Below are positions 17,381 through 27,800 of a stretch of DNA of 32,000 nt, in pieces. The notes beneath the pieces are model-generated. The model was not told the origin of the DNA, did not search any database, and saw only the letters and a list, made by a program, of their open reading frames with translations. The stretch lies in assembly GCF_003428155.1 (NCBI RefSeq), contig NZ_QLIR01000005.1:30001-62000 (forward strand). Direction: 5' to 3'. Within the stretch, counting starts at the first letter, position 1. Each line of letters opens with the position of its first letter. The stretch is from Fastidiosibacter lacustris. Its GTDB lineage: Bacteria; Pseudomonadota; Gammaproteobacteria; Francisellales; Francisellaceae. The translations under genes were made by a program, and so were the position numbers.

Positions 17381-17803
17381 ATGAATATTTGGAAAACGTC
17401 AGTAACAATCAAACAAATAAATGAGCGTGGTGAAGGTTTATTTTCAGATTTATTAGGCATTCGGTTTACTGAGTTAGGTAATGATTATTTGCTTGCAGAA
17501 ATAACACTTCAGCAGAAACATAAGCAACCACTTGGGATTATGAATGGAGGGGTTTCATGTGCAATTGCTGAAACGGTAGGCAGTACAGCTGCAAATTATG
17601 CAGTGGATTTAACTACGCAATATTGCGTAGGTTTAGACATCAACACTAATCATATTCGACCTGCTACTTCTGGTATATTAACGGCTAAAGCCTATCCACA
17701 TCATATCGGACGCACGACACAGGTTTGGGCAATTGAGATAAAAGATGAGCAAAATCGTTTAATTTCAATCAATCGCTTAACAATGGCTGTTAAGGATCGC
17801 TAA
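17381..17803 (+). CDS. PaaI/YbdB-type hotdog-fold thioesterase
   Basis: The 140-aa ORF carries GIMNGGVSCAIAETVGS, matching the GxxHGG-like motif region of PaaI family thioesterases. Confidence 0.7.
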   Translation: MNIWKTSVTIKQINERGEGLFSDLLGIRFTELGNDYLLAEITLQQKHKQPLGIMNGGVSCAIAETVGSTAANYAVDLTTQYCVGLDINTNHIRPATSGILTAKAYPHHIGRTTQVWAIEIKDEQNRLISINRLTMAVKDR

Positions 17804-17804
17804 T

Positions 17805-19760
17805 TTGCAATATGCTAAATTAAGCTGGCAAGCTACAGGAGAACCTATATCTTCTGAATTCGGTGATGTCTACTTTTCTAAAAGTAATGGTTTGGCGGAA
17901 AGCAAATATGTGTTTTTGCAAGGCAATCGCCTTAGAGAGCGCTTCGAAAACTTAACAGATAATGCTCATTTTATTGTTGCTGAAACAGGTTTTGGGACAG
18001 GATTAAATTTTTTAGCATTAGTTTCTTTATGGCATAAGGTAGCCCCTAAATCTGCAAAACTCACTTTTATTAGCTGTGAAAAATACCCATTAACCCGATC
18101 TGATCTTATCCAATCATTATCTTTATGGTCAAGCTTAGAACAAGAAAAAAGGAGCTTAATAGCAAGTTATCCAGAAATTTTTTATACAGGACAAACTTTA
18201 TTAACAATTGCTGAAAATATCAGCCTTAATTTGTTAATAGGTGATGCTGCAATGTCACTTGCAAAAATTGATACCTCGGTTGATGCGTGGTTTTTAGATG
18301 GTTTTGCCCCATCTAAAAATCCTGATATGTGGAGTGATGCGCTTTTTAGTGAAACTTATCGTTTAAGTCATGCTAAGACAACGTTAGCAACCTTTAGTGC
18401 GGCAGGTTTTGTGAAACGCGCACTTGAAAATAATGGTTTTCAAGTAAAAAAGCAAAAAGGTTTTGCTTATAAGCGTGAAATGCTTACAGCAACTGTTAAA
18501 GACATTCATAAAAACCCTATAAATCGTATTAAACCTTATTTTTCTAAGCCTTATGTAAAAACTAATAAAAATAACCCTATTGCTGTTATAGGCGCAGGTA
18601 TGGCTGGTTGTGCTGTAGCTTATGAGTTAACACAAAAAGGGTATGAGGTTCATTTATATGAGCAAAAAAAAGACATTGCACAAGCAGCTTCAGGTAATCC
18701 TTATGGCATCTTAAAACCTTATCTTACTGCTGATGCGAATGTTTCAGACATATTTCATACGCAGGGCTTTTTATCTACACGAGAGTATATATTAAAGCAT
18801 CAGGCTAAGATTGATTTTATTGAATGTGGCGCGCTTGAGTTATTGAGTGACGATAAGTCCTATTTGCGCTTTAGCAATATTGTCAAAAAGCGTGCAGTTG
18901 ATCCAAGGATTCTACGGCTTGTGGATAAAACTTATGCCTCAGAAATTGCAAGTATAAATATTGAATATCCATGTGCTTATTATCCAACTGCGATGATGGT
19001 AAATCCTTATTCGTTATGTAAAGCTCTTATGAATCATGCAAGTGAAAAACTACAGCTGTTTTTAGAACATAAACTTAAATATTGTTTGAAAAACGGTAAC
19101 AAATGGCAATTAGTCTTTGAACAAAAAACAAATTACTATCAACAAGTAATATTTGCTGGTAATGCTTCGTTGATAAATACATTGGAAATTTTACAAAAAC
19201 TTAAAGTTTATCCTTCCTATGGACAAATCACATTGTTAAAACCTGCATTAGCAAATAAAACAATTTTATTAGACAAAGGTTACTTTTTGCCCATTCATAA
19301 TAACGTGCAGCTGATTGGTGCAAGTTTTCGCGATAATATTGATTTAGCTGGAGATAGGCGAAATGAAGATGATCAAAGCAATATTCTACAATTACAAAAC
19401 GTATTTAAAAATAGTGATGATGTCAGCTTAGAAATTATCACAAATAGAGTAGGGCTTCGCTGTGTGACAAGTGATCATGTACCAATAATAGGTGCGCTTG
19501 CAAGTTACGATGAATTTTATCAACAGTATTACCATAAACTGCAAAAGGGCATGATTTTAAAAGCACTACCAGAGCCACAGTATCTAACAGGTTTATATGT
19601 ACTAAGTGCTTTTGGTTCTAAAGGTTTATGCTCAATGATTTATGGTTCTAAAATTCTAGCTTGTTTGATCGAAAATGGTCGTCATTTTGCGTTGGCAAAT
19701 CATTTACTTGAAGCGTTGCATCCGCTTAGATTTTGGGTAAGAGAATTGAAGCAAAGATAG
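17805..19760 (+). CDS. mnmC: Bifunctional tRNA mnm5s2U34 methyltransferase / FAD-dependent cmnm5s2U34 oxidoreductase
   Basis: The N-terminal methyltransferase domain carries ETGFGTGLNF and DAWFLDGFAPSKNPDMW. The C-terminal DAO domain carries IGAGMAGCAVA. The gene uses a TTG start right after the thioesterase stop. Confidence 0.85.
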   Translation: MQYAKLSWQATGEPISSEFGDVYFSKSNGLAESKYVFLQGNRLRERFENLTDNAHFIVAETGFGTGLNFLALVSLWHKVAPKSAKLTFISCEKYPLTRSDLIQSLSLWSSLEQEKRSLIASYPEIFYTGQTLLTIAENISLNLLIGDAAMSLAKIDTSVDAWFLDGFAPSKNPDMWSDALFSETYRLSHAKTTLATFSAAGFVKRALENNGFQVKKQKGFAYKREMLTATVKDIHKNPINRIKPYFSKPYVKTNKNNPIAVIGAGMAGCAVAYELTQKGYEVHLYEQKKDIAQAASGNPYGILKPYLTADANVSDIFHTQGFLSTREYILKHQAKIDFIECGALELLSDDKSYLRFSNIVKKRAVDPRILRLVDKTYASEIASINIEYPCAYYPTAMMVNPYSLCKALMNHASEKLQLFLEHKLKYCLKNGNKWQLVFEQKTNYYQQVIFAGNASLINTLEILQKLKVYPSYGQITLLKPALANKTILLDKGYFLPIHNNVQLIGASFRDNIDLAGDRRNEDDQSNILQLQNVFKNSDDVSLEIITNRVGLRCVTSDHVPIIGALASYDEFYQQYYHKLQKGMILKALPEPQYLTGLYVLSAFGSKGLCSMIYGSKILACLIENGRHFALANHLLEALHPLRFWVRELKQR

Positions 19761-19877
19761 TTTTTTCTACATATATAGTTTTTGAAAACTTATTTTATAC
19801 TCTATACAAATCATCCGTGACCTATAAGCATCCATTTGTTATGATTAGGCAGAGTTCTATGTCTAAGCTATGAGAAT

Positions 19878-22115
19878 ATGGATCAGTTAAGTCTATCTTT
19901 TGAGGATAATGAAAAGCAAACCATTAGCCAATTTACGCGTCAAGCTTATTTAAATTATTCCATGTATGTGATTTTAGATCGTGCACTACCACATATTGGT
20001 GATGGTCTAAAACCTGTGCAAAGAAGGATTATTTATGCAATGTCCGAAATTGGATTATCAGCATTAAGTAAGCATAAAAAATCCGCGCGTACCGTAGGGG
20101 ATGTGTTGGGTAAATATCATCCACATGGTGATAGTGCTTGTTATGAGGCAATGGTGCTTATGGCACAAGATTTTTCATATCGATATCCTCTTATTGATGG
20201 TCAAGGTAACTGGGGATCTCAAGATGATCCAAAATCGTTTGCAGCAATGCGTTATACTGAGTCACGGCTATCAAAGTATGCAGAAGTACTCTTAAGCGAA
20301 TTGAAACTTGGTACGGTTGATTGGACCACAAATTTTGATGGTACGCTTCAGGAGCCAAAGATATTGCCTGCACAAGTACCAAATGTATTGTTAAATGGGA
20401 GTATGGGCATTGCAGTTGGAATGTCAACGGATATCCCTTCACATAATTTAAATGAAGTAGTACAAGGATGTTTATATTTACTAGCGGATAAAAATCATGA
20501 TTTAGATGGATTGATGGATCATATTCCAGGACCAGATTATCCAGGTGGTGCTGAGATTGTTACCCCTTTTGAAGAGCGAAAAAGAATTTACGAAACAGGC
20601 ACAGGTAGCATTAAACTACGTGCGGTTTTTCATGTTGAGGATGGAAATATCATTATTACACGTTTGCCACACCAGGTGTCTAGTGCTAAGTTGATTGAAC
20701 AGATTGCATCTCACATGCACGGTAAGAAAATTCCGTGGTTAAGTGATATTCGAGATGAATCAGATTACAATGACCCTGTTAGAATTGTACTGGTTCCACG
20801 ATCCAATCGTATTGATACAAATCTGCTGATGAGTCATTTGTTTGCAACAACTGATTTAGAGAAAAGCTATCGTATTAATTTAAATATAATTGGTCTAAAT
20901 GGCAAACCTCAAGTTAAATCATTAATCCAAATTTTAACTGAGTGGTTAGAGTTTAGAACACAAGTAACAACTAAACGCTTAGAGTTTCAATTGGATAAAA
21001 TATTAGAGCGATTACACATCCTAGATGGTTTTTTGATTGCATTTTTAAATATTGATGAAATCATTGCCATTATTCGTTATAAAGATGATCCAAAAGATGA
21101 GCTTAAAAAACGCTTTGAACTTACAGATGCAAAAGCAGAAGCAATATTGAATTTACGCTTGTGTAATTTGGCTAAGCTTGAAGAAATTGCCCTTCAAAAG
21201 GAAAAACATGAATTAGAAATAGAGCGTGATGTGATAATGGGTTATTTAGATGATCCAGCTAAGCTTAAAACGCTTATTAAGAAGGAACTAGAACTTGTTC
21301 AGCAAAAGCATGGAGATGCACGTAAATCTGCTTTAATTGTACGCCCTGAAGCCAGAGCGCTCAAAGATTCTGATTTGCAACCTGTGGAAAGCGTAACTAT
21401 CGTTTTATCTAAGCAAGGTTGGGTGAGAGTTGCTAAAGGGCATGAAGTAAACGTTGAAGGTTTAAGTTATAAGGTGGGCGATAGCTACTTTGCTTCTAGT
21501 GTGGGTAAAACTAATCAACCTTGTTTATTTTTTTCAAGCCTAGGTAAAGTTTATAGTTTACTAAGTACAGATCTGCCTTCAGCAAGAGGGCAAGGTGAGC
21601 CAATTACTGGACATTTGAAATTAGAAAAAAATGAGACAATAATAGGTTTAAGTTTTGTGAGGACTGATGATCAAGTGCTTTTTGCCTCAAGTGCGGGCAA
21701 TGCTTTTTTAGCACAATCAGAAGGTCTTATCACCAAAAGCAAAGTCGGTAAACAGGTGATTACACTAGGTGATGATCGCATTGTACCTCCTGTTAATATT
21801 AAAGAAAATGAAGATGCCTTTGTTGTTGCTATTTCTAATCAAGGCAGGCTTTTGGCAGTAAAGAAATCAGAGATCCCAAACTTAACTAAAGGTAAAGGCA
21901 ATCGCTTAATTAATATGCCAAGTCATCTTGCAACAGGCGAAATGCTTAAGTTTGTTGCAGTTGTTCTTAAAGGTGAAACATTGACTATCTTCTCAGGTAA
22001 ACGCCATATGCGTTTAAGCTTTTCTGATTTAAAGGATTATGAAGGTAAGCGGGCAACAAGGGGTAAGCTCCTCCCTCGTGGGTTTCAGAATGTTGATCGG
22101 GTGATTGTGCTATAG
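19878..22115 (+). CDS. parC: DNA topoisomerase IV subunit A
   Basis: [33 protein letters not shown] is present, along with [13 protein letters not shown] (QRDR with wild-type-like Ser and Glu) and the active-site Tyr in AAMRYTE. Confidence 0.9.
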
Positions 22116-22116
22116 A

Positions 22117-22226
22117 TTAAAAAGTGGGTAATGTTGTCATCTAGCGCATTTGTTTTTATAATCAAAAATAGAAAAAATTGATATACGTTGCAGGAATTGC
22201 AACTCAATAAAAACAGTTAAAGCAGG
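22117..22226. repeat. Left arm of a long imperfect inverted repeat (pairs with 25701-25813)
   Basis: The reverse complement aligns by hand with 25701-25813. About 93 of 111 aligned positions match, with one 7-nt indel. The arm starts 2 nt after the parC stop. Confidence 0.8.
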
Positions 22227-22308
22227 TAAGAACCAATTGAAATCTAGTCCAAATGGTGCACAAAGATATCCCTGTCAAATTGAATATAAAGCACTAGGTC
22301 GGCTGCCT

Positions 22309-22819
22309 GAGAACCTGTTCAAAAATTTTTTTAATTTGCTAAAATCTACGTTTTTAAATTCCAAAAGTGGGGAGTTGAAATGCGAAAACGCTATCCCATT
22401 GATATTACACGCGCACAGTTTGCAGTAATTGAACCCATTCTTTTAAGTGCTAGAAAAAAGACAGCACCAAGAGAACTAGCTTTTGTATTGTGGATGCGCA
22501 AAGTGTGAAAAATACAGATACTGCTGAAAATAAAGGTTATGACGCAGGTAAAAGAGTTTCTGGAATTAAGCGATATATTGCTGTGGATACACAAGGCTTG
22601 CCGCATGCTATCCATATTACAACAAATTAGCTAAACGAAGTGAACTGCATAAGTTTGCTGTGATCCCAAAGAGTTGGGTGGTTGAACGCTCTTTTGCTTG
22701 ATTAGAAAAATAAAATGTCGGCGTTTATGGAAAAACTGTGAAAGAAAAAATAATACCAGTTTGCAAATGGTTGTACTTGCTTTCATTAGGCTAATAGCAC
22801 AGAGACTTTGAACAGGCTC
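22309..22819 (+). mobile_element. Internally deleted IS5-family (IS427/IS1031-like) insertion sequence remnant
   Basis: The terminal IRs are GAGAACCTGTTCAAA (left) and the reverse complement of TTTGAACAGGCTC (right). Flanking TGA/TAA may be a degenerate TNA target duplication. The element encloses transposase fragments. Confidence 0.8.
22380..22811 (+). pseudogene. IS5-family DDE transposase pseudogene (three fragments, two internal deletions, one stop, one frameshift)
   Basis: The fragments MRKRYPIDITRAQFAVIEPILLSARKKTAPR, VDAQSVKNTDTAENKGYDAGKRVSGIKRYIAVDTQGLPHAIHITT and AKRSELHKFAVIPKSWVVERSFA*LEK / KCRRLWKNCERKNNTSLQMVVLAFIRLIAQRL lie in different frames. Each matches conserved blocks of this transposase family as I remember them. 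Confidence 0.8.
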
Positions 22820-22921
22820 TAAGGTCTCATCTGCCTGACAAAATTAATGAGACGGTGTACTAGTTACACTAATCTCTGTGTGTTATTATTTTGCTTTAAT
22901 TTGAGTTTGGGAGTTTAATTA

Positions 22922-25666
22922 ATGGGATATATTAACTATAGAAAAATAGAGAAAAAATGGAATATTAAATGGAATGATGACAATGTATATAAAGTTCACC
23001 CCGACTCTACAAAGAAAAAATTTTATTGCATTGACATGTTCCCATATCCTTCTGGTAGCGGTCTTCATGTTGGACATCCTCTAGGATACATTGCTACTGA
23101 TATTACATGCCGCTATAAACGCTTGAAAGGATATAATGTTTTGCATGCTATGGGATTTGACTCATTTGGATTGCCAGCAGAACAATTTGCAATAGAGACA
23201 GGGCAAAACCCAAAAAAAACAACTGAAGAAAACATATGTAACTTTAATTCCCAAATAAGTAGAATGGGACTGTGCATTGATAAATCTAGAGAAATTAGAA
23301 CATCAGATAAAGAATACTATAAGTGGACTCAATGGATCTTTATTAAGTTATTTAATTCTTGGTACGATACAGAAAAAAATCAAGCTAGAGACATAAAAGA
23401 TTTAATTTTATGTTTTGAAAAAGGTGGTTCTTTTGGAATTAATGCAGCTAAGGACAATAATGCTGCTGATTTCTCAGCAAATGATTGGACAAATTTTTCT
23501 GAACTTGAAAAATCAGAAATCCTTATGCAATATAGACTGACTTATCTGTCTTATGCGACAGTGAATTGGTGTCCAAAACTAGGAACTGTACTTGCGAATG
23601 ATGAAGTTATTAATGGGGTATCTGAAAGAGGGGGGCACCCGGTAGAAAAACGGAAGATGAAACAATGGATGATGAGAATAACAGCATATGCAGATCGTTT
23701 GCTATCTAACTTAAATTCTCTGGATTGGCCAGAATCTTTAAAAGAAACACAGAAAAATTGGATAGGGAAATCTCAAGGTATTGTAATTAATTTCAATATT
23801 GACAACTCAAGTGAAACGATAGATATATATACTTCTAAACCTGAAACTATATTTGGCGTAACATTTTTATGCATTTCCCCAGAGCATCCATCTTTGCAAA
23901 GCTTTATAACAAATGAGAATAAGTTAAAAGTAAATGAGTATGTTGAAAAAACTTCCAAAGATAGCGAGCTAGAAAGAGTTTCTAATCTTAACCAAATAAG
24001 TGGAATCTTTACTGGTAAATATGCCATAAACCCTGCAAATAACCAGAAAATACCTATTTGGATTGGAAACTACGTTCTATCAAGTTATGGAACGGGAGTT
24101 GTAATGGGAGTTCCAAGTGAAGATGCAAGAGATAGCGAGTTAGCAAAAAAATATGACTTAAATTTTATTGATGTACTAGATAAAAACACAAATAAAATAA
24201 TAAATTCAAACTTCTTAAATGGAATGTCTACTTATCAAGCAAACGAATCAATATGCCAATATTTATGCAATTTAAAGATTGGAAAGAAAAAAACTAATTT
24301 CAAATTGCGTGACGCAATATTTGGTCGTCAAAGATACTGGGGTGAACCGATCCCAATTTATTATGAAGATGGCATCCCTAAAGCTATTAAAGAATCTGAA
24401 CTCCCTTTAGAACTTCCAGAGATAAATAACTACCTTCCAACAAAAGATGGAACACCACCTTTAGGTCGTGCTAAAGAGTGGTTGTATAAAGGTAAATTTA
24501 AATATGAACTAACTACAATGCCAAGCTGGGCAGCTTCAACTTGGTACTTCTTAAGATATATGTCACCTAATAATGAAAACCATCTTGTAAACAGCGAAGA
24601 CAGTTCTTACTGGGATCAAGTTGACTTATATATTGGTGGCAGTGAACATGCAACGGGACATCTTTTATATTCAAGATTTTGGAATCTTTTTTTATATGAT
24701 ATAGGAGTTATAAGCTTTGCTGAACCTTTTAAAAAAATTATTAATCAAGGGATGCTCCAAGGAAGATCATCCTTTATTTATCGTATAAAAGGAGAAAATA
24801 CTTTTGTTTCAAGTGAGTTAAAAAATAATTATGACGTTCAAAAACTTCATGTTGATATTAAATATATTAACTCAGATGACTCTCTCAATATTAAAGAATT
24901 TAAAACATGGAGAAATGAAAATAAAGACAGTAAGTTTATCTACGATGGTAAACATTTTTACTGCGATTGGACAATAGAAAAAATGTCTAAATCAAAATAC
25001 AATGTAGTCAATCCAGACGATATAATTCAACAATTTGGATCAGATGTCTTTAGAATTTACGAAATGTTTTTAGGTCCAATACAGCAGTCAAAACCTTGGA
25101 TGTTAAATGGTATTGAAGGTGTCAGCAAATTTATCAATAAGCTGTGGCGCTTGTTTTATAATGATAAAGGAGAGCTTATAGTTAGTCATAACGCAGCAAC
25201 ACATCATGAGTTGCATATCCTGCATACTATGTTGCAAAAAGTAGCTAGCGATATAGATCGCTTCTCCTATAACACAGCTATTAGCGCCATGATGATTTGT
25301 GTCAATGAACTAACTGCCATTAAATGCCATAGTACTCACATCCTGAAGGATTTACTTATCGCTGTTTCTCCTTTTGCTGTGTATATATCACAAGAACTTT
25401 GGCAACAAGCTCTTAAACAGAATGATTACATCGTTGACCAAAGTTATCCTGAAATCAAAGATCAATATCTAGACATTAAAGTTATTACATACCCAATTAC
25501 TATAAATGGAAAGTTAAAACTACACATGGATTTTGATTCACAAGATGATAATGAAACCATAAAACAAAAGACTATAAGTGAAGAAAAAATTAAAAGGTTA
25601 ATAAAAAATCAAGAAATCAAAAAATTTATACATGTTCCTGGGAAAATAATTAATATTGTTATTTGA
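22922..25666 (+). CDS. leuS: Leucyl-tRNA synthetase, long (914 aa) non-gammaproteobacterial type
   Basis: The ORF carries HIGH (LHVGHP), KMSKS (EKMSKSKYN) and a CP1 editing domain (TSKPETIFGVTF, GTGVVMGVPSEDARD). SERGGHPV replaces the Zn-binding Cys motif of E. coli LeuRS. GGGAG lies 8 nt upstream of the ATG. Confidence 0.9.
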   Translation: MGYINYRKIEKKWNIKWNDDNVYKVHPDSTKKKFYCIDMFPYPSGSGLHVGHPLGYIATDITCRYKRLKGYNVLHAMGFDSFGLPAEQFAIETGQNPKKTTEENICNFNSQISRMGLCIDKSREIRTSDKEYYKWTQWIFIKLFNSWYDTEKNQARDIKDLILCFEKGGSFGINAAKDNNAADFSANDWTNFSELEKSEILMQYRLTYLSYATVNWCPKLGTVLANDEVINGVSERGGHPVEKRKMKQWMMRITAYADRLLSNLNSLDWPESLKETQKNWIGKSQGIVINFNIDNSSETIDIYTSKPETIFGVTFLCISPEHPSLQSFITNENKLKVNEYVEKTSKDSELERVSNLNQISGIFTGKYAINPANNQKIPIWIGNYVLSSYGTGVVMGVPSEDARDSELAKKYDLNFIDVLDKNTNKIINSNFLNGMSTYQANESICQYLCNLKIGKKKTNFKLRDAIFGRQRYWGEPIPIYYEDGIPKAIKESELPLELPEINNYLPTKDGTPPLGRAKEWLYKGKFKYELTTMPSWAASTWYFLRYMSPNNENHLVNSEDSSYWDQVDLYIGGSEHATGHLLYSRFWNLFLYDIGVISFAEPFKKIINQGMLQGRSSFIYRIKGENTFVSSELKNNYDVQKLHVDIKYINSDDSLNIKEFKTWRNENKDSKFIYDGKHFYCDWTIEKMSKSKYNVVNPDDIIQQFGSDVFRIYEMFLGPIQQSKPWMLNGIEGVSKFINKLWRLFYNDKGELIVSHNAATHHELHILHTMLQKVASDIDRFSYNTAISAMMICVNELTAIKCHSTHILKDLLIAVSPFAVYISQELWQQALKQNDYIVDQSYPEIKDQYLDIKVITYPITINGKLKLHMDFDSQDDNETIKQKTISEEKIKRLIKNQEIKKFIHVPGKIINIVI

Positions 25667-25700
25667 TATAGATAGATTGGCAGTGTTTTACTTTAGCGTT

Positions 25701-25813
25701 CCTGCTTTAACTGTCTTTATTGAGTTGGAATTCCTGCAATCTACATCAATTTTCGTCATTTTTGATTTGAGATTATAAAAAGGGATGTGCTAGATGACAA
25801 CACTGCCTAATTA
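25701..25813. repeat. Right arm of the long imperfect inverted repeat (pairs with 22117-22226)
   Basis: See the left arm for the alignment. This arm ends at the base before the rluD stop codon (25814-25816). Confidence 0.8.
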
Positions 25814-26911
25814 TTAATATTCAAACCTTAGTTGATCTAAATCGTTGTCATCATCGTTATCATATTCCTCGTCGTCATAATCTTCATAGTCATCAACAAA
25901 GTCAAAATAGTCATCATTAAAGTCATCTTCATCATAACTGTACAATTGCTGAGCGTCGTAGCGGAGCGTTTTAATTAAATTTTGTAGATCTGTAGGTGGT
26001 TTGGCAATAAACTCAATATGCTTTTCAGTATCAGGGTGAATAAAGGCAAGTTTATAAGCATGTAGTGCTTGACGTTTGAAAGCTTTTAATACTTCTTGTG
26101 CTTCATCTGATAAGCCTTTAACCAGTTTTAAACGTGGGTTATAGATAGGATCACCTACAAGAGGTGCTTTAATATGCGCCATATGCACGCGAATTTGATG
26201 AGTTCTACCCGTTTCAAGTTTACATCTAATTCGCGTGTGCCCACGATAACGCTCAAGTACTACAAAATGAGTAATTGCCTCTTTACCAGTTGGTGTTACA
26301 GCCATTTTCAAACGGTTATGAGGGTTTCGACCTATTTTTGTTTTAATGGTACTACCAACGGTGATATATCCTGTTACAATTGCTTCATATTCACGCTTTA
26401 CTTGTCGCTTAGTTAATTGTTCAATTAACGAAGTATGAGCTTTAAGACTTTTAGCTATAACCATTATGCCTGAAGTATCTTTGTCCAATCGATGAATAAT
26501 ACCTGCCCTTGGTAGTGTTGAAAAAGCAGAATCGTGTGCAAGTAGCGCATTGGATAGAGTCCCAGAATAGTTTCCAGCTCCTGGATGGACAGTAAGACCA
26601 GCTGGTTTGTTAATAATGATGATATGATCATCTTCAAAAATAACATCAAGTGCTATTGGCTCGGCTTGCCAGTTGTTTTGTTGTTCTAATTGTGTATTAA
26701 GAGTAATTTCTTCACCGCCGATAATTTTATCTTTAGCTTTACGTTGTTCACCGTTTACGAGAATATCGCCTTGTTTTAACCATTTTTGTAATTGTGAACG
26801 TGAATAGTCTCTAAATAGGATGGATAAACATTGGTCAAGTCTTTTTCCAGCTAGTGTTTCTGGTGCAATAACATTTTGATGAATATTTTTAAATACGGTA
26901 TGATGTGACAC
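25814..26911 (-). CDS. rluD: 23S rRNA pseudouridine synthase RluD with a C-terminal extension of about 45 aa rich in D, E and Y
   Basis: The ORF has an S4 domain (LAGKRLDQCLS...LVNGE) and the catalytic motif HRLDKDTSG. It is divergent from bamD as in E. coli. The start was reassigned to the GTG at 26911, which has AGGA about 9 nt upstream. The longer track ORF would overlap the bamD start. Confidence 0.85.
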   Translation of the reverse strand: MSHHTVFKNIHQNVIAPETLAGKRLDQCLSILFRDYSRSQLQKWLKQGDILVNGEQRKAKDKIIGGEEITLNTQLEQQNNWQAEPIALDVIFEDDHIIIINKPAGLTVHPGAGNYSGTLSNALLAHDSAFSTLPRAGIIHRLDKDTSGIMVIAKSLKAHTSLIEQLTKRQVKREYEAIVTGYITVGSTIKTKIGRNPHNRLKMAVTPTGKEAITHFVVLERYRGHTRIRCKLETGRTHQIRVHMAHIKAPLVGDPIYNPRLKLVKGLSDEAQEVLKAFKRQALHAYKLAFIHPDTEKHIEFIAKPPTDLQNLIKTLRYDAQQLYSYDEDDFNDDYFDFVDDYEDYDDEEYDNDDDNDLDQLRFEY

Positions 26912-26999
26912 AAGTAAAATCCTATAAAAGACGCCTTTTAATCTGGGTATTATTGTAAACAATAAATGACAAAGGCGGTAATGAATCAAAGGAAAATAA

Positions 27000-27800
27000 A
27001 TGAAAAAGATTTTATTGAGGATGTATTGTCTTGGTGTGTTTGCTTTGCTTTCAGCGTGTGCTACCACCACAAACAAGCCTTTACCTTATCAAGGTGAAAG
27101 TGCAGAGTATATTTATGCTAAAGGGCATGAACAAGTTAAAAATGGTGAGTACTATAAAGCGATCGATACATTTCGCTCATTAAATTCTCAATATCCTTTT
27201 CAAAAATATTCTGAGTTGGGAAATCTTGAGCTTATTTACGCTTATTATGAAGATGGTCAATCAGAAATGGCATTAGGTTTGGCTCAACAGTTTTTAAGAG
27301 CCTATCCTACTTCTAAAAATTTGGGCTATGTCTACTATATGATGGGAGTGATCAATTACGATAATGGTCGTGGATTTTTGCAACGCAGATTGCCTTATGA
27401 TATGGCCCAACATGATCCATCTGCTTATATCCAAGCATTTAATGATTTAAAGCGTGCAGTACTGTTAGATCCAGAAAGTTCATTCGTTGGCGATGCAAAG
27501 CGTAGAATGGTGCATATCAACAATGTGGTTGCGGAATATGAATATAATATCGCCAAGTTTTATTTTGACCATGAGGCTTATGTGGCAGCAATTAACCGCG
27601 CTAAGCTTGTGGTTGAGAGTTACCCGCAAAGTAAATCTATTGAAAATGCATTGGTATTGATCATTCGTGCTTATGATATATTAAAACTACCGATGTTAGC
27701 AGAAAAATCGATGGAAGTATTAAAAACAAACTATCCAAATAATGCATATTCAAAATCTTTAGAAGATGCAGCTAAGCGACCAACGGTGGTTTTTAAATAA
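27000..27800 (+). CDS. bamD: Outer membrane protein assembly factor BamD (YfiO) lipoprotein
   Basis: A lipobox is present (LLSAC) and the body is TPR-like. The pairing with divergent rluD is conserved. Confidence 0.85.
   Translation: MKKILLRMYCLGVFALLSACATTTNKPLPYQGESAEYIYAKGHEQVKNGEYYKAIDTFRSLNSQYPFQKYSELGNLELIYAYYEDGQSEMALGLAQQFLRAYPTSKNLGYVYYMMGVINYDNGRGFLQRRLPYDMAQHDPSAYIQAFNDLKRAVLLDPESSFVGDAKRRMVHINNVVAEYEYNIAKFYFDHEAYVAAINRAKLVVESYPQSKSIENALVLIIRAYDILKLPMLAEKSMEVLKTNYPNNAYSKSLEDAAKRPTVVFK

Follow-up and report, generated by a model that had tools for sequence, protein, structure and literature searches.

We analysed a 32,000-nucleotide stretch of the Fastidiosibacter lacustris genome (contig NZ_QLIR01000005.1, positions 30,001 to 62,000; hereafter the window), in which a leucyl-tRNA synthetase gene, leuS, lies between the convergent genes parC and rluD and is bracketed by an inverted repeat of about 110 bp. 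Alignment to homologues identified the two arms of this repeat, almost certainly, as the left ends of two insertion sequences (IS) of the IS1 family, placed in opposite orientation with their transposase genes reading inward. The best overall account is probably that these IS1-family left ends bound a horizontally acquired second leuS inserted between parC and rluD. On balance we favour the view that the 3.68-kb segment from 22127 to 25807 is a dead IS1-type composite transposon, and we infer that it once moved as a unit. Coordinates of all features are collected in Table 1; loci fetched for comparison are denoted by L numbers.

The inverted repeat itself is real. Gapped local alignment and blastn matched 22116-22226 to the reverse complement of 25701-25818 with an E value of 7e-25, whereas the runner-up match to the arm anywhere in the window reached only E ~0.01. 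The five identical runs listed in the original prediction were all found and its count of 93 matching positions held, although these positions are spread over 118 alignment columns (78.8%) including one 7-nt indel, rather than over 111. Repeat detection resolved the same similarity into two collinear arm pairs, 22160-22226/25701-25767 (67 nt, 87%) and 22116-22175/25759-25818 (60 nt, 78%), shifted by one indel. The blastn search with the arm that had been proposed as a check, run within the window, returned no copy beyond the pair. A third copy was likewise absent from ~0.75 Mb of fetched loci and from the extra 3.7 kb of contig JAMBMW010000003.1 of 'Candidatus Nebulobacter yamunensis' (L037), which matches the window at 99.7% identity over 18.7 kb and shares its structure. 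Viral contigs contained no match to a degenerate pattern derived from the arms. The possibility that the arms represent a known RNA or a tRNA-derived attachment site was ruled out, since scanning the region against Rfam (E up to 1) and for tRNAs gave no match.

The extent of the repeat differs from that of the elements it belongs to. The true outer boundaries of the IS1-family elements are a GG at 22127 and a CC at 25807, and likeness between the flanks beyond these points is confined to A and T and is not significant. The arms had been thought to touch the stop codons of the neighbouring genes; in fact, 11 nt separate the parC stop codon (22113-22115) from the left element, and 6 nt separate the right element from the rluD stop codon (25814-25816). 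A weaker similarity had also been suspected to continue inward to about 22250 and 25668. No homology between the arms was found there: the right arm switches to its right terminal inverted repeat (IRR) at 25701, and the left arm runs on as codons of the transposase gene insA to ~22311. Each arm therefore does not correspond to an oversized terminal inverted repeat but is composed of a left terminal inverted repeat (IRL), a promoter, a leader and a 5′ segment of insA. The arms are ~110 bp long because that much of the left end of each IS copy is still alignable.

Assignment to the IS1 family was supported at the DNA level by homologous elements from unrelated samples. Both arms aligned to such elements, complete or near-complete, at 79-81% identity along the terminal repeat, the leader and the start of insA, the best match being 79.6% over 162 columns (E 2.6e-38). 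Compared with the elements of L070, L071 and L045, the left relic was 79-80% identical (E 4e-36 to 3e-38) and the right relic 80-81% (E 1e-21 to 2e-26). L071 is a complete 806-bp element with insA (HTH_Tnp_IS1), insB (DDE_Tnp_IS1), terminal inverted repeats and a 7-bp flanking duplication. The closest full-length relatives combine HTH_Tnp_IS1 and DDE_Tnp_IS1 with an A-run at the insA/insB junction. As a separate observation, the marine metagenome contig L070 carries two isoforms of this same IS1 subfamily in direct orientation (L070:1622-2426 and L070:4007-4405); they flank a 478-aa open reading frame (ORF) without Pfam match, which is another possible composite arrangement.

Protein comparisons pointed to the same family. 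Read from the sister genome L037, which is free of a 21-bp deletion described below, the left InsA fragment was 75% identical over 55 aa to the InsA of L071 (E 5e-32). A phmmer scan of 1.8 billion proteins returned two matches to the insA fragment (66% and 60% identity), and on the match contig with Pfam calls HTH_Tnp_IS1 adjoins DDE_Tnp_IS1. Both of these contigs, together with two contigs from a later search, carry IS1-family elements. The sole tblastn match among 72,556 plasmids is annotated 'IS1 family transposase'. Zn_ribbon_InsA was the top Pfam match to the fragment but fell short of the curated threshold (E 0.008), and the 52-aa insA fragment gave no match in a word-index homology search.

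The ends of the elements carry the hallmarks of the family, whose conserved terminal bases are GGnnnTG according to ISfinder. The left end reads GGTAATG, and both the outer and the inner ends on the right read GGCAGTG. The left IRL agrees with that of E. coli IS1A (taken from NC_000913.3) at 15/23 bases, and the IRLs agree with that of L071 at 17-18/23. Starting 8 nt into the IRL, at the equivalent position in both arms, a TTGTCA-17-TATAAT site matches the sigma-70 consensus at 11 of 12 bases; by consensus match, these are the two best sigma-70-like sites of the 4.2-kb region. The promoter of IS1 has been described as overlapping the IRL (PMC12428005).

Our arms thus resemble E. coli IS1 (768 bp, insA/insB, programmed -1 frameshift) in their GGnnnTG termini, in the promoter-like site overlapping the IRL and in the N-terminal CxxC...CxxC zinc ribbon of InsA, which begins ~40-50 nt inside the end. 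They differ in belonging to a distant, rarely sampled subfamily of 806-bp elements whose InsA is only ~42-48% identical to enterobacterial InsA (pairwise BLASTP of the left fragment against Xenorhabdus-like and Providencia IS1 InsA; E 6e-10 and 5e-12). They differ also in being dead fragments of 185 bp and 129 bp, in which no insB, frameshift site or target duplication is left. No insB sequence survives in either copy, while the homologous elements L044, L070 and L071 retain it. The left copy keeps the zinc ribbon of InsA; both copies have lost the helix-turn-helix (HTH) part, which occurs only in the homologues. Both copies are relics of IS1-family members and not functional members.

The left relic has decayed in several ways. 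Its insA start codon is mutated from ATG to ATA (22168-22170), and its leader has lost 7 nt that are present in the right copy, L045, L070 and L071. Further inward the + strand reads ...KIDIRCRNCNSIKTVKAGKNQLKSSPNGAQRYPCQ..., which corresponds to zinc-ribbon codons of insA (CRNC...CQ[NC]). An in-frame 21-bp deletion after 22279 (22279/22280) removes the second CxxC (NCGKYFQ) from the window insA; the missing bases are retained in the sister genome (L037:9002-9022), so decay of the relic went on after the two strains split. At ~22311 the relic is interrupted by an IS5-like relic. No IS1 sequence was found downstream of that insertion, where local alignment to the 806-bp L071 element was no better than with shuffled sequences. 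Since the spacer at 22825..22921 contains no recognisable IS1 sequence, the left copy has lost not only the HTH part of insA but also insB and its IRR.

The IS5-like relic is itself degraded. It is bounded by 18-nt terminal inverted repeats (22306-22323 and 22807-22824), and three-frame translation showed its transposase frame in at least three pieces with internal deletions. When stitched together, these fragments matched Pfam DDE_Tnp_1 (E 5.5e-15) and DDE_Tnp_1_2 (E 8e-6). The relic is accompanied by an 8-bp direct repeat, CTGCCTGA, with copies at 22303-22310 and 22831-22838; relative to L037 the window carries a 5-bp AAAAT insertion at 22707-22711. The stretch 22831-22860 (LPDKINETVY followed by a stop), which was read after the 8-bp repeat, was considered as a continuation of insA past the IS5-like insertion; this was dropped, as alignment to the complete element was at shuffle level.

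The right relic is shorter and retains both ends, with insA fused straight onto the IRR. Its inner end agrees with the IRRs of L071 and L070 at 17/23 bases and with their closest IRLs at 14/23; an IRR match of 15/20 was reached by only 2/20000 shuffles. RNA folding of the whole leuS-rluD spacer gave a long hairpin (-36.2 kcal/mol, z -2.9), which forms because the IRL of the right relic pairs with its IRR. The hairpin was also considered as a classical terminator. Although the fold is stable, no terminator-like site was called in either arm, and IRL/IRR pairing accounts for the structure.

The detailed anatomy of the two arms bears directly on the readings put forward in the original prediction: either a cassette with long terminal inverted repeats, whose ~110-bp arms would act as recombination substrates, or a ~220-bp palindromic miniature inverted-repeat transposable element (MITE) split at its centre by incoming DNA. 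Both would suit arms that are long and inverted, the want of an intact transposase inside the segment and the long hairpin of the right-hand spacer. We nevertheless consider them very improbable. The arms are co-linear with the IRL, promoter, leader and insA of ordinary 806-bp IS1-family elements, whose terminal repeats measure only ~23-28 nt, and because both hold insA codons they must stem from an autonomous IS. On its inner side the right arm ends in an IRR of its own, and the left arm continues into insA codons. The arms thus belong to two distinct IS copies, which refutes a single palindrome split at its centre, and the hairpin is explained by pairing of the IRL with the IRR. The statement that no transposase lies inside holds for intact genes, yet both arms contain the start of a transposase gene reading inward. 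In the same way, the segment is now indeed non-autonomous with leuS as its passenger, but it is not of the mobile insertion cassette or foldback type.

The right relic invites comparison with MITEs nevertheless. Pairs of these elements can bracket and mobilise genes, as outlined for the MITE-bounded composite units called TIME-COMPs (PMC13367494) and for MITEAba12 (PMC6382973). As with IS-derived MITEs, the right copy is an internal-deletion derivative with both terminal repeats, the usual origin of a MITE. It differs in that only one such relic is present, the left copy being a truncated IS, and a multi-copy family has no support in the sequence searched.

We next turn to the passenger. The LeuS encoded in the window is only 31% identical to E. 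coli LeuS. Its nearest homologues (58-63%) are those of Photorhabdus viridis and Xenorhabdus sp. TH1 and metagenome proteins, with the Wohlfahrtiimonas protein at 56%; the remaining homologues are hundreds of Cytophagales/Flammeovirga enzymes at 51-55%. Judged by these sequence relationships, the gene is foreign and of Bacteroidota type, horizontally acquired rather than gammaproteobacterial.

In the sister genome this leuS is broken. An A8 run in the window gene (23205-23212) is an A7 run in L037 (9942-9949), which splits the gene into pieces of 111 and 800 aa. These pieces are listed as a pseudogene of 'Ca. Nebulobacter yamunensis', and the intact F. lacustris orthologue is named 'leuS_1' (PMC9837558, Table S2d); this Prokka name occurs in both genomes. 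The numbered name and the survival of a strain with a frameshifted copy together imply that a second leuS lies elsewhere in the genome. The window leuS is a xenologue, dispensable in the sister strain, and is most likely an accessory copy and not the essential housekeeping gene. Where the original prediction saw an essential translation gene on an unusual vehicle, the gene is thus most likely a xenologous extra copy, one that has been pseudogenised in a close relative. The gene was lost in 'Ca. Nebulobacter yamunensis', an obligate endosymbiont, and kept in the window strain, which is probably free-living.

How might such a segment have arisen? In the history that we favour, an IS1-IS1 composite transposon with inverted copies would have captured a Bacteroidota-type leuS. 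The IS1 transposase (InsAB') would then have acted on the two outer IRLs, and the unit would have inserted where only a very short spacer parts parC from the convergent rluD. It would have become fixed there while both IS copies decayed: the left copy would have lost its start codon, received an IS5-like insertion in insA and lost everything downstream, and the right copy would have been reduced by an internal loss of ~680 bp to a 129-bp relic that retains its two terminal repeats. The unit now contains nothing that could mobilise it, and only an intact relative acting in trans might do so.

Two features of the locus are consistent with this history. The two IS1-family relics bracket leuS in inverted orientation, which is the layout of a composite transposon. 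As the original prediction had noted, the IS remnant and leuS both lie between the arms, and indeed all foreign or mobile DNA is found between the two outer IRLs; only 11 and 6 nt of native spacer remain outside them.

The insertion left parC untruncated, because ParC has the same length as its Cysteiniphilum and Caedibacter orthologues and is alignable with them through residue 744. In relatives, parC likewise has a convergent gene 0-40 nt downstream. The nearest ParC relatives (82-84% identity) were found in Cysteiniphilum, in Caedibacter taeniospiralis and in one metagenome contig, and in none of these are the genes to either side of parC ordered as in the window. Over 17381-22115, comparison with L001-L007, L016 and L046 showed a wholly different gene order around parC: in Cysteiniphilum and Caedibacter, a conserved convergent gene of 198 aa follows parC, different genes precede it, and neither mnmC nor rluD lies in the vicinity. 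Genomes in this family have undergone heavy rearrangement. On the other side of the segment, the longest rluD ORF (420 aa, from a TTG) overlaps the start of the divergent bamD gene (27000) by 77 nt. The true rluD start is probably internal, because the annotation of the sister genome (L037) calls a 365-aa product. RluD has a long acidic C-terminal tail.

Four results weigh against transposition of the segment as a unit. No empty parC-rluD site was found when ParC was searched against GTDB species genomes and JGI metagenomes. The empty-site comparison suggested in the original prediction had no counterpart to draw on, because the nearest available genomes share no synteny around parC. A target-site duplication, also proposed as a check, was not detected: no 8-10-mer with up to one mismatch flanks the whole unit or the right relic at offsets of +/-3, and the best candidate was a shifted 6/8 match. 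Since ~15% divergence has accrued, we regard the missing duplication as uninformative rather than contradictory. The arms are 85% identical to each other and 77-80% identical to L045, an element from an unrelated metagenome. Because the first value is barely above the second, the arms are either very old duplicates or were never identical, though they are still the closest known relatives of each other. Lastly, the arms were absent from the five leuS-homologue loci searched, out of six (L069 being the sixth).

The same results would be accommodated by two independent IS1-family insertions that never formed a composite transposon, with leuS arriving separately, for instance by homologous or illegitimate recombination of a larger island, different IS1 isoforms later inserting on each side (unless one was present beforehand), and deletions compacting the locus. 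The 15% divergence of the arms, scarcely nearer to each other than to L045, the missing target-site duplication and the missing arms at the five homologue loci all speak for such a history. So do the IS elements and pseudogenes in which this lineage is rich (PMC9837558), and the element of a different IS1 subfamily that adjoins the leuS homologue of a Xenorhabdus-like assembly (L040), which indicates that IS1 elements land near leuS independently. We nonetheless hold it to be doubtful. It needs two events that each fell immediately beyond the stop codon of a backbone gene and each left the IRL outward, and it sits uneasily with the lack of any foreign DNA outside the arms and with their being mutually closest relatives.

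A further alternative takes the breakpoint itself as the clue. IS1 is capable of replicative transposition (PMC12428005), and a duplicative inversion of one copy, or recombination of two, could have joined the parC and rluD sides, the interval then being rearranged chromosome. Synteny with Cysteiniphilum and Caedibacter breaks exactly at the parC stop codon and the 198-aa gene is absent from the window, which speaks for such a rearrangement; a direct target duplication is not expected after duplicative inversion. However, synteny is also broken upstream of parC, where there is no IS, which means that the break is not peculiar to the IS. The interval moreover holds only foreign or mobile DNA (the xenologous leuS and the IS5-like relic) and no native chromosomal genes. 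We therefore judge this alternative improbable and retain the decayed composite transposon as our preferred reading.

Table 1. Features of the leuS segment and its flanking genes (positions in the window)
Feature	Position	Strand	Description
parC (topoisomerase IV subunit A)	19878..22115	+	745 aa; NCBIfam TIGR01062, E 1e-298
Left IS1-family relic	22127..~22311	+	DNA alignment to IS1-family elements; InsA protein fragment
Left IRL	22127-22149		GGTAATGTTGTCATCTAGCGCAT
Left promoter-like site	-35 from 22134, -10 ending 22162		-35 TTGTCA, -10 TATAAT
IS5-like (DDE_Tnp_1) relic	22306..22824	+	519 bp, nested in left IS1 copy
Spacer upstream of leuS	22825..22921	+	GGGAG 8 nt before ATG
leuS	22922..25666	+	intact 914-aa leucyl-tRNA synthetase; NCBIfam leuS_bact, E 1e-262; HVGH and KMSKS motifs
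Right IS1-family relic	25679..25807	-	129-bp internal-deletion (MITE-like) derivative, both ends kept
Right IRR	25679-25701		GGCAGTGTTTTACTTTAGCGTTC; insA fused straight onto IRR
Right insA start	25688-25759	-	ATG at 25759; 23 codons MTKIDVDCRNSNSIKTVKAGTLK, then stop
Right promoter-like site	25800-25772	-	
Right IRL	25785-25807	-	minus-strand GGCAGTGTTGTCATCTAGCACAT
rluD (23S rRNA pseudouridine synthase)	25814..27076	-	NCBIfam PRK11180, E 1e-119

The layout of the segment can be set beside well-described composite transposons. As in Tn10 and Tn5, two inverted copies of one IS bracket a passenger gene, in such transposons one that confers a selectable trait, and the outermost repeats bound the unit. 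The present segment differs in that no target duplication, second locus or empty site was found, so that mobility is inferred, and in carrying an aminoacyl-tRNA synthetase gene where classical examples carry a resistance or toxin gene. Composite transposons flanked by IS1 are represented by Tn1681 and Tn9. For decay after delivery, the case of ISApl1-mcr-1-ISApl1 (Tn6330) provides a parallel: as summarised in PMC5821093, this transposon decays into immobile remnants. In both cases a composite transposon would deliver its cargo, and loss or decay of one or both IS copies would then fix that cargo in place. The mcr-1 case, however, is recent and involves loss of whole copies, whereas here fragments of both copies remain and the event is old, with 15% arm divergence.

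The surroundings of leuS homologues in other bacteria suggested what the cargo may do. In Wohlfahrtiimonas chitiniclastica, the LeuRS homologue ends an operon encoding a methyltransferase, two dCTP-deaminase-like proteins, a DUF1826-like protein, an ATP-grasp ligase and an AlaRS-like protein. On a Logan contig, homologues of five of these genes (all but the ATP-grasp ligase) adjoin the LeuRS homologue, and the contig end runs into a separate ATP-grasp gene. In Photorhabdus viridis, the ATP-grasp ligase and the AlaRS-like protein adjoin the homologue. This conserved gene set occupies L069:1919-10718 and L041:1942-11461, with part of it in L038:401-8089; its methyltransferase is of the S-adenosylmethionine (SAM) type and its AlaRS-like protein has ~380 aa. 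No gene of the cluster was found near leuS in the window, where the gene is an orphan copy. In Xenorhabdus sp. TH1, the leuS homologue stands alone between gcvP and a gene for a major facilitator superfamily (MFS) transporter. The unrelated IS1 of the Xenorhabdus-like assembly, which is near-identical to TH1, lies downstream of the leuS homologue at a distance of ~90 nt and points away from it (L040:10840-11560; IRL GGTCATGTATTTAATCC, insA/insB); in the complete genome of Xenorhabdus sp. TH1, a 1.35-kb stretch without called gene occupies the corresponding place (L039:10749-12102).

From these neighbours, the conserved gene set looks like a biosynthetic cluster with a self-resistance synthetase. 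Such synthetase copies include AgnB2, the LeuRS of the agrocin 84 producer, and the isoleucyl-tRNA synthetases (IleRS) MupM/MupA. By analogy, the leuS cargo of the window might encode an inhibitor-insensitive LeuRS, a speculative reading drawn from gene neighbours in other bacteria. Like AgnB2 and MupM/MupA, it is a divergent, horizontally acquired second synthetase beside a presumed housekeeping one, and in three lineages its homologues neighbour a conserved gene set that looks biosynthetic. Unlike them, it is an orphan without cluster genes nearby, its role is only predicted, and its reading frame is already disrupted in the endosymbiotic sister strain.

A more specific scenario would make the window leuS an orphan immunity gene, originally protecting producers of an undescribed LeuRS-targeting antibiotic of nucleoside or aminoacyl type. 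The antibiotic would be made by the homologue-linked cluster of Wohlfahrtiimonas, Photorhabdus viridis and a Xenorhabdus-like assembly, and an IS1 composite transposon would have brought the gene, as a resistance determinant standing by itself, into a freshwater Fastidiosibacter, with loss now under way in the endosymbiotic lineage. We advance this scenario tentatively and lean against it, though loss of leuS in the endosymbiont but not in the free-living strain would fit a role in environmental defence.

With these results the apparent oddity of the locus is gone: neither a novel vehicle with long arms nor, most likely, an essential gene on a mobile element is involved, but instead a textbook decay series of nested IS. 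The Fastidiosibacter/'Ca. Nebulobacter' lineage is shown to contain a rarely sampled IS1 subfamily, represented among others by a natural 129-bp deletion derivative. The residual interest comes mainly from the possible resistance role of the cargo gene. If the resistance reading is true, an orphan resistance determinant would be typical cargo for a composite transposon. The analysis also points to a Bacteroidota-type LeuRS clade that spreads among Proteobacteria and is repeatedly tied to one uncharacterised cluster, a concrete lead for the resistance-guided discovery of a LeuRS inhibitor.

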